Made by a program: the position numbers and the translations under genes
Virus record (IMG/VR): IMGVR_UViG_3300017971_002799
Span: 64,001-87,793 of that record
Origin: a virus
Taxonomy: Duplodnaviria; Heunggongvirae; Uroviricota; Caudoviricetes
Direction: 5' to 3' (one strand)
DNA: 23,793 bases
Notes under the pieces: generated by a model
Database searches by the model: none
Told to the model about the DNA's origin: nothing
What the model saw: the letters and a program-made list of their open reading frames with translations, nothing else
Shown: one piece after another, positions 6,724-23,762 of the stretch
Layout: each line of letters starts with the position of its first letter
How positions within the stretch are numbered: the stretch's first letter is position 1

Positions 6724-8454
6724 TTAGGATAGCCTCGCTAATATGAACGTTATACCAAAGAGTAGAATTACAATGAATACCACCGCAAAGATGACATACA
6801 GAGGTATCATTCCTAAATAAGAACCTATAAGCAAAAACGGAATCGAGAGAGCTATAGCAGCCTGCACATTTCCTGTAGCGACAAAGATCCTGCCTGCTAA
6901 TAGCAGATATACAATAAAAGCACCAATACCAGCAACAATGGTACCTGGAACACCTATCCACTCACCGAAACCATTCATCGCCTGAGTCAAACGATTACCC
7001 ATATTGTCTTTCAAACCACGCGCGTAAGCGCCTGTCCAATCCGGTACTGTGTAAACAATCTCTACGAAAACTCTATCAATACGAACTTGACTAACTCCAT
7101 CACCAGAATAAACCTCAATACCGACTTGCAAATCTTCTATATCAGAGGTACGCCAAGTAGAATCTTCACTAGGCCTTGCCATCTTCTCCGCCGCGTGTAG
7201 TTTCTGATTCTCTCCAGCAGCCATTCGCCACTCACCAACAGTTTCTAGACCAGACAAACTAATAAAAGGCCTACCGTAAACTTCTCCATCATCACTACTC
7301 TGTAAATTGAAATGAACGGTAACACTCTTTAGACTTGAATCACTAACAAAACTAAAAGAGTCTAAGTGATAGAGGTCCGCTTGTAAGGAAGTGCTAGATG
7401 TATATACATAAGTATCACTATAGTCCAAACTAAACCTATCAGTCGCTTGTACCGCCGCCGACAGTGTACCTGATAATATAAACTCTCCAGTAGTACCATT
7501 AAAACTAGAAACATACTCAGATTCATTTTGTGGGGGCCCTCCATCTGCTGTCTGTGTTATCGTAAGAGTTGCACTATTCCAAAAATTATCTGCTTGATTG
7601 AAGGTAGCATCAACAACAGCTGTAGGCGAGCCGCTATCAGCTACCCCTCGAGAATTAGGCATGTTTCGTGTCCAATTCACCTTATCGTAGTGTGAGTTAA
7701 TATTTGGGAACTGTGATGCTATAGCAGTCTCAGAACCACTAGCATTCGGATAAAGATAAGACACTTTAGTTATATCAGGAACTTCTGCTACAGATAAAGA
7801 AGACTCGAAAGACTCAGGAGTCAACTGATCCATACCAGGTATAGCAGTCTTAAAAGCCAAAGAACCTGCGGTGTTTAATCTACCACTATCCGTTAAAAGA
7901 TCAATACTCCATACATCTTCAATTACGCCCGCCCTTATAAGCATCAGCTCACCAAGGAGAGATCTATTATAATCCATCGGGTTATCATAAACGTCAGCGT
8001 TAGCATCAACAGCATAGGTATCCTGATTACAATTAGCGGCAGGACATTCAACTAGAGGAGCGAAATAAGCAGGATTGCCGGACACCTTTATTGTATAATT
8101 ATCCAACTCATCCCAGTCAAGACCTTTCGTAGATATTTGTGAGGGTGTTAAATACACAGAAATGATATTATAATCATAATAGTTTAGAGGATTGGTGGCA
8201 ACAAGATTGTCATTTTCGTCATAAATAACCACCAAGTAAGTATCTTCCGCAGACTCTGTAGGTGTAACAGTATAATCTATATCATACTCAACATAAAACA
8301 ACCAATCACCATTCACCCATAAATTATTCCAAACAAAAACCTTCTCAATCGAGACGTCGTTTGGATTAGATATAGCAAAAGCCGACCCCGATAACACCAG
8401 AGTCAGTACTAAAACAGTTAGTATCGAAACGTTTAAAATCTTAGCTTTCCACAT
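6724..8454 (-). CDS. Secreted spike/adaptor protein with signal peptide and 3-TM C-terminal anchor (576 aa)
   Basis: Signal peptide ending SAFA; large beta-rich ectodomain; three C-terminal TM helices similar to those of the 683-aa protein. Confidence 0.75.
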   Translation of the reverse strand: MWKAKILNVSILTVLVLTLVLSGSAFAISNPNDVSIEKVFVWNNLWVNGDWLFYVEYDIDYTVTPTESAEDTYLVVIYDENDNLVATNPLNYYDYNIISVYLTPSQISTKGLDWDELDNYTIKVSGNPAYFAPLVECPAANCNQDTYAVDANADVYDNPMDYNRSLLGELMLIRAGVIEDVWSIDLLTDSGRLNTAGSLAFKTAIPGMDQLTPESFESSLSVAEVPDITKVSYLYPNASGSETAIASQFPNINSHYDKVNWTRNMPNSRGVADSGSPTAVVDATFNQADNFWNSATLTITQTADGGPPQNESEYVSSFNGTTGEFILSGTLSAAVQATDRFSLDYSDTYVYTSSTSLQADLYHLDSFSFVSDSSLKSVTVHFNLQSSDDGEVYGRPFISLSGLETVGEWRMAAGENQKLHAAEKMARPSEDSTWRTSDIEDLQVGIEVYSGDGVSQVRIDRVFVEIVYTVPDWTGAYARGLKDNMGNRLTQAMNGFGEWIGVPGTIVAGIGAFIVYLLLAGRIFVATGNVQAAIALSIPFLLIGSYLGMIPLYVIFAVVFIVILLFGITFILARLS

Positions 8455-8776
8455 ACTCCCCAGGGACCTCCAAAAGCTTGCGACGCACGAATCCTAACTT
8501 CTGCAACTTTTCTAAAGCAACACTTACTCTTCCCGATGGTAACTCTGTCGCCTCCGGCAAATCAGCCTCTTGATAGCCTTCTTCATACAACTTCTCCCAC
8601 ACAACATGCATATCAGGATCCCAATACCCTGTATGCTCATAAGTTTCCAACTGACTTACAGTATCAGCTGGTAACTCCTGTCTAACAAGACTGCTCCTAA
8701 CTAGCTTAGAAACAAAACCAGGATCCACCTTCTGGAAACGTTCAGATATTCTTACAACATCCTTCATCTCTGCCAC
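8441..8776 (-). CDS. Winged-helix DNA-binding protein (111 aa; GTG start re-assigned from 8785)
   Basis: C-terminal LPEATELPSGRVSVALEKLQKLGFVRR fits a wHTH recognition helix and wing. Confidence 0.55.
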   Translation of the reverse strand: MAEMKDVVRISERFQKVDPGFVSKLVRSSLVRQELPADTVSQLETYEHTGYWDPDMHVVWEKLYEEGYQEADLPEATELPSGRVSVALEKLQKLGFVRRKLLEVPGEYVES

Positions 8777-8788
8777 TGTAAACAACCT

Positions 8789-9115
8789 CTAATCTTCTTC
8801 GTCCACTTCTTCTCGAGTACTCTCAACTCTTTCTCGCACGGCGTCTCGATACTGCTCACCTGTAATATCCCCTAACAACTGTGCTTTTACAATTCCTGGA
8901 ACAAACTCCCACTCCTCTGGTAAATCCTTTTTCTTAACTTCTGTTAACTGCCAATCCGGAAACCAAACGAGAGTACCCTTCTCTAAAAGAGCTACTTGAT
9001 AACTCTCGTCCGTAGACTCTGGCTTCATATCGACTTCCATAACAACACCCAAAGAACTTTTATGCTTCCCACTATCAACCTTAACTGTGTCGCCAGGAAC
9101 TAAAGCAACGGCCAT
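8789..9115 (-). CDS. KOW/SH3-like motif protein (108 aa; ATG start re-assigned from 9121)
   Basis: LVPGDTVKVDSGKHKSSLGVVMEVD matches the KOW pattern. Confidence 0.55.
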   Translation of the reverse strand: MAVALVPGDTVKVDSGKHKSSLGVVMEVDMKPESTDESYQVALLEKGTLVWFPDWQLTEVKKKDLPEEWEFVPGIVKAQLLGDITGEQYRDAVRERVESTREEVDEED

Positions 9116-15417: not shown

Positions 15418-15882
15418 CTACACAAACTTAAAGGTGCGACCTTGTATCAAAATCCCACCTTTCTTTCTCTTCTTATCCGAAGTAAACCCATTTCCTTTAG
15501 GAGGGGTTATTGTAGAAGGGACACCTGAAGCGACAGCGCTAGACTTAACACCCTTCCTTCCCATACTTCCTTTTATATGTCCAGCCATAGCCTCAGCAAC
15601 ACCTGAAGGACCAACTATTTTCTTCTCCCTACCAGTTCTTGCACCAGTCGGACCTACCCTCCTCTGAGTAACCTGCTTAACCTTTGGAGCCTTCGGTTTC
15701 GCTCCCAATCCAGGCTTGCCAGGCGCTTTATGTTTTCGTTGAAAACCTGCACCCTGCCTTTTAGAAGAACGCGCGTCAAGTTCCTCAACCTGACCAGCAG
15801 TAAGCGTTGCACCTGTAGAAGCTGCAAGCATTCTCTTCATCTGCACGTCACTCATTCCAGTTCTCGGATCTAATCCAGCCAT
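15418..15882 (-). CDS. Lys/Arg-rich basic protein, candidate nucleoprotein (154 aa; start re-assigned from 16032)
   Basis: GGGGTTGT-N5-ATG follows the upstream stop and removes the overlap; very K/R/G-rich. Confidence 0.65.
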   Translation of the reverse strand: MAGLDPRTGMSDVQMKRMLAASTGATLTAGQVEELDARSSKRQGAGFQRKHKAPGKPGLGAKPKAPKVKQVTQRRVGPTGARTGREKKIVGPSGVAEAMAGHIKGSMGRKGVKSSAVASGVPSTITPPKGNGFTSDKKRKKGGILIQGRTFKFV

Positions 15883-15895
15883 TACAGACAACCCC

Positions 15896-16201
15896 TTATC
15901 CCATTCTATCGACAGCTTGTTGTATTCTGCCGTAATTGTTCTCAACAAAAGTTCTAGACCAGATAGCAGTACGAGGCACTCCCTTCGGCCAACCAGCCTC
16001 AATAAATGCAGCATTCGCGGCGTTGTAAACATTTTCCCCCATAAATACCCGCTGCGCTATATCGTCAACCATATCTTGTTCAGGGTCAGGAGCATCAGGC
16101 ACATCATCCCAATAAGGATTATACTTTCCCTCGGCCTTTAGTATATCCTTCTCCCGGCGAGTTAACGCCCCACTCTTTCCAAAGTCGCGAATATCTGACA
16201 T
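15896..16201 (-). CDS. Hypothetical protein (101 aa; ATG start re-assigned from 16210)
   Basis: GAGGTTGT-N5-ATG start motif; abuts neighbours. Confidence 0.65.
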   Translation of the reverse strand: MSDIRDFGKSGALTRREKDILKAEGKYNPYWDDVPDAPDPEQDMVDDIAQRVFMGENVYNAANAAFIEAGWPKGVPRTAIWSRTFVENNYGRIQQAVDRMG

Positions 16202-16213
16202 GATAAACAACCT

Positions 16214-16729
16214 CTAAAAAATTTGCCTCGCCCTTATACGTAATCCTGCAGGCTTCTGTCTTTGAGGCCTCCTCATTCCAAGTCTCATTTGAGGCAGAGC
16301 CGCTCTCCCCAGAGCAGGCATAGCAATTAATCCAGGAGAAGCTGCGGGTTGGGGAATTCTAGTCCTCCGGGCAGTTGGTTTTATGGACATAAAAGGATCG
16401 CTAGCTTGAGGCGTTACCATTTCCGAAGAAACAGCCGGAGTGCCGTGCAACATGAACTGCTGACTAGCTCTAGTTTCGGGCTCTTGGCCAGAAGCAATCA
16501 TCGCAGCCTTCTGCTCGCGTAACCTTTCAAAGGCATCTGAAGGATCTGAGGGGTCCAATCCTGTAGCGGGAAACTCTTGCTGAGGAGGTTCAGGAGGCTC
16601 ATATCCCGTAGCAGGCAACAGTTCTTGCAAGCTGGGCTTTGTTGTCCCAGGCCCGAAGACAAATCTTGGAGGACCTTCCATATCACTCGACATAGAAGCT
16701 ATATTAGGTAACACACTCGGTACAGGCAT
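16214..16729 (-). CDS. Pro-rich, probably disordered protein with Arg-rich tail (171 aa)
   Basis: GGGGGT SD 8 nt before ATG; first gene after an AT-rich intergenic region. Confidence 0.65.
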   Translation of the reverse strand: MPVPSVLPNIASMSSDMEGPPRFVFGPGTTKPSLQELLPATGYEPPEPPQQEFPATGLDPSDPSDAFERLREQKAAMIASGQEPETRASQQFMLHGTPAVSSEMVTPQASDPFMSIKPTARRTRIPQPAASPGLIAMPALGRAALPQMRLGMRRPQRQKPAGLRIRARQIF

Positions 16730-16753: not shown

Positions 16754-16830
16754 AAGGATCTTTTATATATAATATACAAGAATATTGAACAGACCTACAA
16801 TTCGATACTAAATCTTTTCGGGGCCATATA

Positions 16831-16869
16831 GTAGAAGAGGCGCCGAGCTAAATTCAGCCCAAGCGCCCC
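16831..16869 (-). terminator. GC-rich hairpin after the capsid gene (terminator or RNA-stabilising stem)
   Basis: Minus strand GGGGCGC-TT-GGGCTGA...TTAGCTC-G-GCGCCTC then TTCTAC; the U-tract is weak. Confidence 0.55.
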
Positions 16870-16898
16870 TACCACTAATATATTTGAGGAACCAACCT

Positions 16899-17096
16899 CT
16901 AGCCTTGGCCGCCAATCCATGCGACGGCACCCAGGAGTATCACGGCTACGAAGACATACGGCAGTACGTCAACGAGCGCGGACAGTCCACTGGGGGTGTC
17001 CGTCGGCAGTGCATCGATGGTGGTCAAGATGGTGGGAATCAAGCTGACACCTACAACGATAGATATCATGATTCCGATCAGCACCGCTACCAACAT
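16899..17096 (-). CDS. Putative major capsid protein, spindle-shaped-virus (SSV1 VP1/His1-like) two-helix type (65 aa; ATG start re-assigned from 17105)
   Basis: MLVAVLIGIMISIVVGVSLIPTILTTI-DALPTDTPSG-LSALVDVLPYVFVAVILLGAVAW: two hydrophobic helices with G-x-x-L-h-P-x-I and L-h-x-h-h-P signatures around a polar turn; own GGAGG SD and terminator, as expected for a highly expressed gene. Confidence 0.7.
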   Translation of the reverse strand: MLVAVLIGIMISIVVGVSLIPTILTTIDALPTDTPSGLSALVDVLPYVFVAVILLGAVAWIGGQG

Positions 17097-17256
17097 TCGA
17101 GACAACCTCCGGTAAGATTTAGAAAAACGTTAGTCTTTCGGTACATTATAATTATCCCCAATATATCTGGACATTTCCATAGTCATATTATAAAGGACCA
17201 CTAAAAAATCACAGCTAACCTATACAACCAGTCAATGAGCCTTAATACGATGACTA

Positions 17257-23354: not shown

Positions 23355-23586
23355 GCAACTACAACTAAACATGGATCTCTTATTAACATATCTACCATTC
23401 GATCTCCCTAGGCAAAACCCTATAAATGAAAGACTCCTCTACCAACTAGGACACAAGCCCCCAGAACTTATAATGTTAGACGAATTCTATCTCCTCTGGA
23501 GTACTGAAGCCACTCTACACCTACGAAAAGCACACCGAATATTAAACCCTCACCTATACGAAGAACCAACACCTCCAACCCTTTAG
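23347..23586 (+). CDS. Hypothetical protein with Walker-B-like LIMLDEF (79 aa; start re-assigned from 23278)
   Basis: ATG at 23347 overlaps the ATPase stop. Confidence 0.5.
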   Translation: MYEQLQLNMDLLLTYLPFDLPRQNPINERLLYQLGHKPPELIMLDEFYLLWSTEATLHLRKAHRILNPHLYEEPTPPTL

Positions 23587-23762
23587 AACCGGCCCCTCCC
23601 CTCACCTGCCGCATTGCGATAAAGGACCAAACAAACCTCCCTACCTAGGTCCCTACGTGGCTATTTGGGCCGAGCTGATAGTCCCCTGTTCAGACCTCTC
23701 ACACAATCTGGTCGTCTAGATCACTCCCCCGTGTGGGTATTCGTCGTTGGCCCCAATTTAAA

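Follow-up and report, generated by a model that had tools for sequence, protein, structure and literature searches.

The best explanation of our data is that a 65-residue, very hydrophobic two-helix protein encoded by an 87,793-bp virus record is probably the main coat protein of the virion and, to judge from sequence profiles and a predicted fold, is a divergent homologue of the spindle-virus coats SSV1/SSV19 VP1 and His1 VP21. The stretch that we analysed (hereafter the window, 23,793 nucleotides) is the right-hand 23.8 kb of this record, and the features in it on which our argument draws are collected in Table 1. What is surprising here is not the coat family itself but the setting of the coat gene, namely an 88-kb linear virus of bacterial style.

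Table 1. Features of the window (window positions; genome positions in brackets where they are given).
Feature	Position	Strand	Basis
Right copy of the inverted terminal repeat	23586..23681 (genome 87586-87681)		100% identical to the reverse complement of genome 1-96
Promoter-like region: conserved block TCCTTTATAATATGACTA, then TGGAAA, 17 nt, GATAAT	17151..17197	-	Consensus scan, 9/12
Shine-Dalgarno GGAGG, 9 nt 5' of the ATG	17106..17110	-	Read from the sequence
Candidate major coat protein gene, 65 aa, two-helix, hydrophobic	16899..17096	-	ORF and homologue starts; stop codon included
Strong stem-loop just 3' of the stop codon, without T-run	16829..16877	-	RNA fold of 16800-16905 (-): -40.8 kcal/mol, z -3.5
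Basic protein, 171 aa, pI 10.1, next gene	16214..16729	-	ORF list; no Pfam or PHROG family
Lys/Arg-rich protein, 204 aa, pI 11.2, 39 K+R; candidate DNA-binding partner	15418..16032	-	Composition and position; no family match
Low-complexity giant protein, 1767 aa	10111..15414	-	ORF list; in the place of the large adhesin-like protein of relatives and WyrdV1
Lineage-conserved protein, 576 aa	6724..8454	-	tblastn to relatives, 35-41% identity

The open reading frame is a real gene and lies far beyond what chance would produce. We found 157 relatives among 5.8 billion proteins, almost all of them 63-77 amino acids long, and because the homologues (about 150) all start at the residue equivalent to the ATG (MLVAVLIG or MLVGVLIS), the 65-residue reading is correct rather than the longer reading of the same frame from a TTG codon (window 16899-17105, minus strand; 68 residues). 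A previous reading made from the sequence alone had proposed the same start and length as well as the absence of a propeptide, and the homologues, which begin directly at this residue, agree with it on all these counts. Its term 'leaderless' applies in the sense that there is neither leader peptide nor propeptide; as a statement about the mRNA it is wrong, because a GGAGG sits 9 nt 5' of the ATG, with a promoter-like site farther 5' of it. Synonymous sites between relatives are saturated (pS 0.60-0.87) at pN values of 0.02-0.29, and one pair of relatives has identical coat proteins at a pS of 0.62, so purifying selection on the gene is very strong. One copy is present in the whole 87,793-bp genome (a single match at E<=10), which confirms that the gene is without paralogue here; relatives carry it in one, two or three tandem copies. 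The coat protein had no tblastn match among 50,697 phage and archaeal-virus records, the ESM Atlas returned only clusters labelled 'virus', and the matching sequencing runs were two DNA runs (sediment, seawater), with no RNA run among those listed.

The succession of a first helix, a polar turn and a second helix, described before from the letters, is present in the protein and is reproduced by an AlphaFold2 model from a 54-sequence alignment (helices 2-28 and 36-63, mean pLDDT 90). Without a single Lys or Arg (pI 4.1, GRAVY 1.69) the protein has no basic C-terminal tail, just as had been claimed, and the claim that it has no pilin motif likewise holds, since Met stands directly at the helix and inspection of the sequence shows no G-F-x-x-x-E or similar prepilin cleavage motif before it. 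Both helices are near-invariant among relatives, helix 1 being the most conserved part with 10 invariant positions, and the polar loop, rich in Thr, Ser, Ala and Gly, varies in length (20-44 residues between the conserved helix motifs). Lys or Arg is found among the last eight residues in 1 of 101 close family members versus 14 of 18 distant relatives. N-glycosylation sequons in the loop, considered as a clue to an archaeal host, are not enriched (29 observed, 28.9 in shuffles) and were dropped. Some relatives (P0124, P0134, P0142, P0146, P0257) are 200-310 residues long and continue after the coat hairpin into a conserved soluble domain with the motifs NNLD.LLGI, YDWY..DK and FKVVGLHK; these may be minor proteins anchored in the shell, a candidate assignment to which a gene-calling artefact is the alternative.

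Relationship to spindle-virus coats is indicated by profiles and by fold. Against 177,635 PDB sequences, the profile of 54 family members matched only 7XDI_A, which is SSV19 VP1 (E 1.6e-4), and a second profile, built from 20 more distant relatives that a search of 1.8 billion cluster representatives had yielded, found the same chain at E 1.5e-7; the match between the two profiles stands at 99.6%. Alignment with hhalign reached SSV1 VP1 at 94% (E 1.4e-7) over residues 76-139, that is the mature part only, and His1 VP21 at 71.6%. When the profile was run against 225 six-frame ORFs from SSV1, His1 and WyrdV1, SSV1 VP1 ranked first, His1 VP21 second and SSV1 VP3 third, and the other two- or three-helix membrane proteins of these three viruses scored at noise level. 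Real VP1 and VP21 scored 41.5 and 28.6 versus 10.4±2.3 and 9.9±2.0 for their shuffles (z of about 13 and about 9); reversed and shuffled VP1/VP21 gave about 10±2. Foldseek, queried with the AlphaFold2 model, put 7xdi_A on top (probability 0.99, TM 0.70/0.67, 66 columns) with an E-value that is only 0.16, as one would expect of a small and simple helical hairpin, and is about 20 times better than that of the next match. Fainter signals come from Pfam His1_capsid (PF25665), where the 68- and 65-residue forms score 16.7 and 15.0 bits, below the curated cut-off of 27 (some match to this family is seen in 36 of the 54 members, with a best member E-value of 1.9e-4), and from PHROG 11172, the SSV1 VP1 family (E 0.08). 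The two 'His1-like' coat proteins of WyrdV1 did not match the family profile, from which it follows that not just any hydrophobic hairpin passes such a test and that the coat family is heterogeneous. Counting against the assignment are the sub-threshold Pfam score, the lack of a WyrdV1 match and the simplicity of the hairpin fold. With profile alignments to VP1 and VP21 above controls and a fold match to 7xdi_A, both a profile and a structure match were found, and the kinship with SSV1 VP1 proposed by the sequence-only reading stands: on profile and model evidence, the 65-residue protein is a genuine, divergent relative of the spindle-virus hairpin coats (SSV1/SSV19 VP1, His1 VP21).

With VP1 of SSV1 and SSV19 (Fuselloviridae) it has in common the two hydrophobic helices, the polar Thr/Ser-rich loop, the helix 1 motif LIG..I.I.VG..L.P.I and, in helix 2, L.P followed by hydrophobic residues. 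Unlike SSV1 VP1, it comes without a 65-residue propeptide, without basic residues at either end and without a VP3 paralogue; the SSV1 genome is 15 kb, circular and integrating, whereas the one here is a linear molecule of 88 kb that has repeats at its ends, encodes a protein-primed polymerase and has expression signals that, unlike those of SSV1/SSV19, look bacterial. His1 VP21 (Halspiviridae) and the coats of Thaspiviridae are likewise unprocessed and about 70 residues long, and their genomes, too, are linear, have inverted terminal repeats and encode a family B polymerase that is protein-primed. Yet the present genome is 3 to 6 times larger and has a family A polymerase in addition, our coat protein lacks the basic C-terminus of VP21, and the hosts of His1 and Thaspiviridae are archaea. 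As in the described spindle-virus families, the coat gene goes together with genes for a morphogenesis ATPase and for a large end or adhesin protein; described Fuselloviridae, Halspiviridae and Thaspiviridae, however, have archaeal hosts and genomes of about 14-30 kb, compared with 45-118 kb in this lineage. The protein is, to our minds, a new, divergent and tail-less variant within a known coat family.

The genome that carries it ends in a perfect 96-bp inverted repeat whose right copy lies 112 nt inside the right end of the record, which implies a linear genome with terminal repeats and a left end that is about 112 nt short in the record. It encodes two polymerases, one protein-primed and one of family A (PolA), together with UvrD, BRCT and four GerE/LuxR domains. 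An Rfam scan of the whole genome found tRNAs only, and ARAGORN called tRNA genes at genome 12676-12872 (minus strand) and 23807-24000 (plus strand): the tRNA-Pro is interrupted by 103 nt and the tRNA-Leu by 40 nt, the tRNA-Met has a U-U mismatch at 1:72, and CCA is encoded in the tRNA-Met and the tRNA-Leu. Genomes of relatives span 45-118 kb: the same coat gene occurs on contigs of 44.8-48.2 kb and of 99-119 kb and is often less than 1 kb from the contig end. Nine independent contigs of 44.8-48.2 kb (L111, L112, L104 and L018 among them) have two coat genes about 250 nt from the end, the ATPase and the protein-primed polymerase, and are probably complete, smaller genomes of the same lineage. 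A 13-kb relative labelled 'provirus' in IMG/VR proved to be the end of a contig of about 48 kb that is viral in make-up and has no host flank.

Around the coat gene, the signals for expression look bacterial, and they do so across relatives rather than in this genome alone. The motif GGAGGTT is invariant in 24 aligned upstream regions, and among 52 dereplicated upstream regions from independent metagenomes, TTGNNN-17-TANNNT occurs in 17 (shuffles, mean 4.8 and maximum 11; antisense strand, 3). The spacing of the hexamers peaks sharply at 17 with a spacer sequence that is free to vary, and at its free positions the pattern settles on TTGA and TATAAT, some of these positions admitting C or G. 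TBP would not tolerate C or G at those positions of its box. The coat gene's own promoter copy (TGGAAA-17-GATAAT) is weaker than the TTGAnn-17-TATAAT of relatives; it is one of three paralogous blocks (window 17151-17197, minus strand; genome 53538, minus strand; genome ~21250, plus strand) that have in common TCCTTWATAATATGACTAT, then TKGAAW, 17 nt and KATAAT, and that look like a common regulator site before three operons. Downstream, 14 of 55 relatives have a perfect GC-rich hairpin with a T-run after the coat gene, versus 0.18 in shuffles and none antisense. Scans of this genome alone for sigma-70 and terminator consensus sequences gave no enrichment over shuffles; the signal emerges only when relatives are compared. 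A full 12/12 sigma-70 consensus, TTGACA-17-TATAAT, is found once (genome 9097-9125, minus strand; L009), before a gene at 8205-9077 (minus strand), and at L009 7426-7449 there is a clean two-way hairpin that carries a T8 run. In a 109.6-kb relative (L006:110-1280) about 975 nt of inserted sequence interrupt the coat gene after codon 9, and the 3' part of this insertion is a group I intron (RF00028, 52.3 bits, above the Rfam cut-off). To our knowledge, group I introns of this sort are a feature of bacteria and phages and not of archaea. At loci L067, L068 and L084 the same first exon is missing; the coat gene in the window is intact.

Because of the promoter, GGAGGTT, the terminators and the group I intron in relatives, and of the bacterial-looking genes of this genome, we read the host as most probably bacterial. 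The converse, that the protein and its role are as we propose but the host is archaeal and the bacterial-looking genes and signals are acquisitions or coincidences, we consider unlikely, even if several observations speak for it. Every relative of the coat that has been characterised comes from an archaeal virus, as do the nearest viral relatives of the ATPase; two tRNA genes carry insertions; and one related contig of 15 kb was binned in a Bathyarchaeia MAG. In addition, the split into a structural and an enzymatic arm, the que genes and an asparagine synthase recall the large spindle viruses of ANME-1 (PMC9894754). Set against this are the convergence of the promoter pattern on TTGA/TATAAT, the hairpin and T-run terminators, the group I intron in the coat gene of one relative, and the PolA, UvrD, BRCT and GerE/LuxR genes of this genome. 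As for the Bathyarchaeia contig, it holds viral genes only and therefore says little about the host, and when 20 kb of the window were compared with 401 genomes of that MAG's class, spacer-like matches stayed at chance level. No host information can be had from the polymerase, as its relatives in bacterial and archaeal viruses are equally distant.

A role of the protein as coat is in keeping with its position. The gene stands at the head of a long operon for large proteins anchored in the membrane and opens a minus-strand arm of about 34 kb with the 1767-residue giant, several large proteins and, at the module's end, a pI/Zot-like ATPase (genome 58991-59659). The best viral matches of this ATPase come from WyrdV1 (1e-9) and Muninn virus, two Asgard viruses predicted to be spindle-shaped. 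Linkage of the coat gene with the genes for the 576-residue protein, two small proteins and the ATPase is kept in relatives, among them the compact viruses of about 48 kb, and WyrdV1, an Asgard wyrdvirus, has the same order of coat gene(s), large adhesin, small ORFs and ATPase; wyrdviruses and Muninn virus differ in having genomes of 12-16 kb and 'His1-like' coats that the family profile does not match. Pfam scans of every ORF of at least 85 residues in the genome, to which PHROGs were added for the structural arm, left most ORFs of that arm without a family. The Pfam scan of these ORFs found no capsid, terminase, portal or tail/tail-tube family and no recombinase anywhere in the genome, and neither it nor the PHROG search of the structural arm found a peptidoglycan hydrolase. 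The 576-residue protein, the best-conserved partner of the coat, likewise had no tblastn match among phage and archaeal-virus records; its 332-residue homologue in relatives, on which the AlphaFold2 model and fold search were made, has neither a jelly-roll nor an HK97 fold but is Ig-like (Ig/CARDB-like ectodomain) and membrane-anchored through C-terminal helices. Elsewhere in the genome, the 106-residue product of an ORF at 34510-34830 (plus strand) is homologous to SSV1 p18 (DUF5658 in Pfam); a phmmer search of the genome's ORFs gave it E 2e-7. Two polytopic membrane proteins of the structural arm at genome 54219-57034 (minus strand) resemble O-antigen ligase (Wzy_C, weak) and TMEM260-like GT-C glycosyltransferases, and as a candidate role they may glycosylate virion proteins or the Thr/Ser-rich loop of the coat.

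The following mode of assembly may be envisaged. The hairpin would insert into the cell membrane with its loop outside, and many copies would pack side by side through their hydrophobic faces into a shell, as VP1 does in SSV19; the pI/Zot-like ATPase would drive assembly or extrusion at the membrane. The resulting particle could be a spindle, a filament or pleomorphic. The linear, protein-primed genome would be condensed by separate small and very basic proteins, which we infer because the coat protein itself has no basic residue. A need for separate DNA-binding proteins had already been put forward in the sequence-only reading, and it gains support from a coat without Lys or Arg, from neighbours with pI values of 10.1 and 11.2 and from a conserved basic protein of 31-52 residues with the motif GY.YKR.GK.V.V.GY.RG.P. 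In 10 of 45 relatives a small ORF of this kind (31-45 residues, 33-46% Lys+Arg) ends 40-62 nt 5' of the coat gene; loci with this arrangement include L020, L033, L039, L043, L050, L057, L101, L107 and L109. The homologue in the present genome has 52 residues and lies at the far end of the structural arm (genome 46692-46847, minus strand). Together, a coat lacking basic residues and a tiny, dedicated basic protein suggest that the tasks of building the shell and condensing the DNA are split differently than in SSV1 or His1.

Two other readings of the protein need to be weighed against that of a main coat. It might be a small integral protein of the membrane that serves another purpose, whether holin-like, in exclusion or as a minor part of a lipid envelope, with the real shell made by one of the ORFs that we fail to recognise. 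Its two helices, strong hydrophobicity and holin-like size would suit this, most structural-arm ORFs have no family, and the polymerase has its nearest counterparts in tectiviruses, which contain a membrane and have capsids of jelly-roll type. We nevertheless hold this to be distinctly unlikely, since the controlled match is specific to VP1 and VP21 and does not extend to the other proteins with two or three helices in His1 and SSV1, both helices hardly vary among viruses of 45-118 kb, and the gene has strong expression signals of its own at the head of the structural operon. Moreover, the one to three tandem copies in relatives resemble the VP1/VP3 pair, and no capsid family was found in the genome. 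The protein might also be a coat of inovirus type, in which helix 1 would be cleaved off as a signal peptide and the mature single helix would line the DNA, a thought invited by the pI/Zot-like ATPase and by the filaments seen in related-looking IME1 elements (10.64898/2026.09.15.751708). This we regard as highly improbable: helix 1 begins at residue 2 without a charged n-region and runs over 27 residues, and, having 10 invariant positions, it is better conserved than any other part of the protein. Signal peptides are not conserved to such a degree. Further, the basic C-terminal tail is missing, and both helices align to mature VP1 of the SSV19 particle. Hence the reading as main coat protein, a relative of VP1 and VP21, is the one we prefer.

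How this coat compares with reported systems bears on the reach of the finding. Reviews and taxonomy papers know spindle-shaped viruses with archaeal hosts only and call them archaea-specific (PMC10848233, PMC12451623). The large spindle-type viruses of ANME-1, with a structural and an enzymatic arm, reach up to 72.6 kb (PMC9894754), and those we compared by description, Tepeuviridae (PBV144, 72.6 kb, one MCP) and Pletoitzamnavirus, are like our virus in their two arms, queuosine-precursor genes and asparagine synthase and, for Tepeuviridae, in the single coat gene; they differ by an RNA-primed PolB and by CRISPR spacers that tie them to archaea (PMC9894754). Closer in setting are the IME1 elements of Dehalococcoides (Nesbo et al., preprint, October 2026), which have a pI-like ATPase and small hydrophobic proteins with SSV1 VP1 as best structural match and were proposed to be budding or filamentous bacterial viruses (10.64898/2026.09.15.751708). 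Compared by description, they agree with our lineage in the bacterial setting, the pI-like ATPase, small proteins like VP1/PHROG 11172, CARDB-like membrane proteins and the lack of tailed-phage genes, but they are circular and integrating, 21-28 kb in size, with a tyrosine recombinase and a primase-helicase (10.64898/2026.09.15.751708), unlike the linear genomes of 45-118 kb with terminal repeats and protein-primed polymerase found here.

Taking coat and host together, we lean, by a little, towards the view that a widespread lineage of sediment viruses with linear genomes of 45-118 kb builds its particles from a hairpin coat of the archaeal spindle type and yet infects bacteria, so that this type of coat may not be confined to archaea. 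If true, the hairpin virion design would not be archaea-specific, and it would carry genomes larger than the 72.6-kb tepeuvirus, the largest reported that we found for this coat type. The context of the coat gene thereby makes a long-standing question testable, namely whether this virion architecture is confined to archaea, and the gene itself is a marker for abundant, unclassified large viruses without tails, which automatic pipelines now file under tailed phages.
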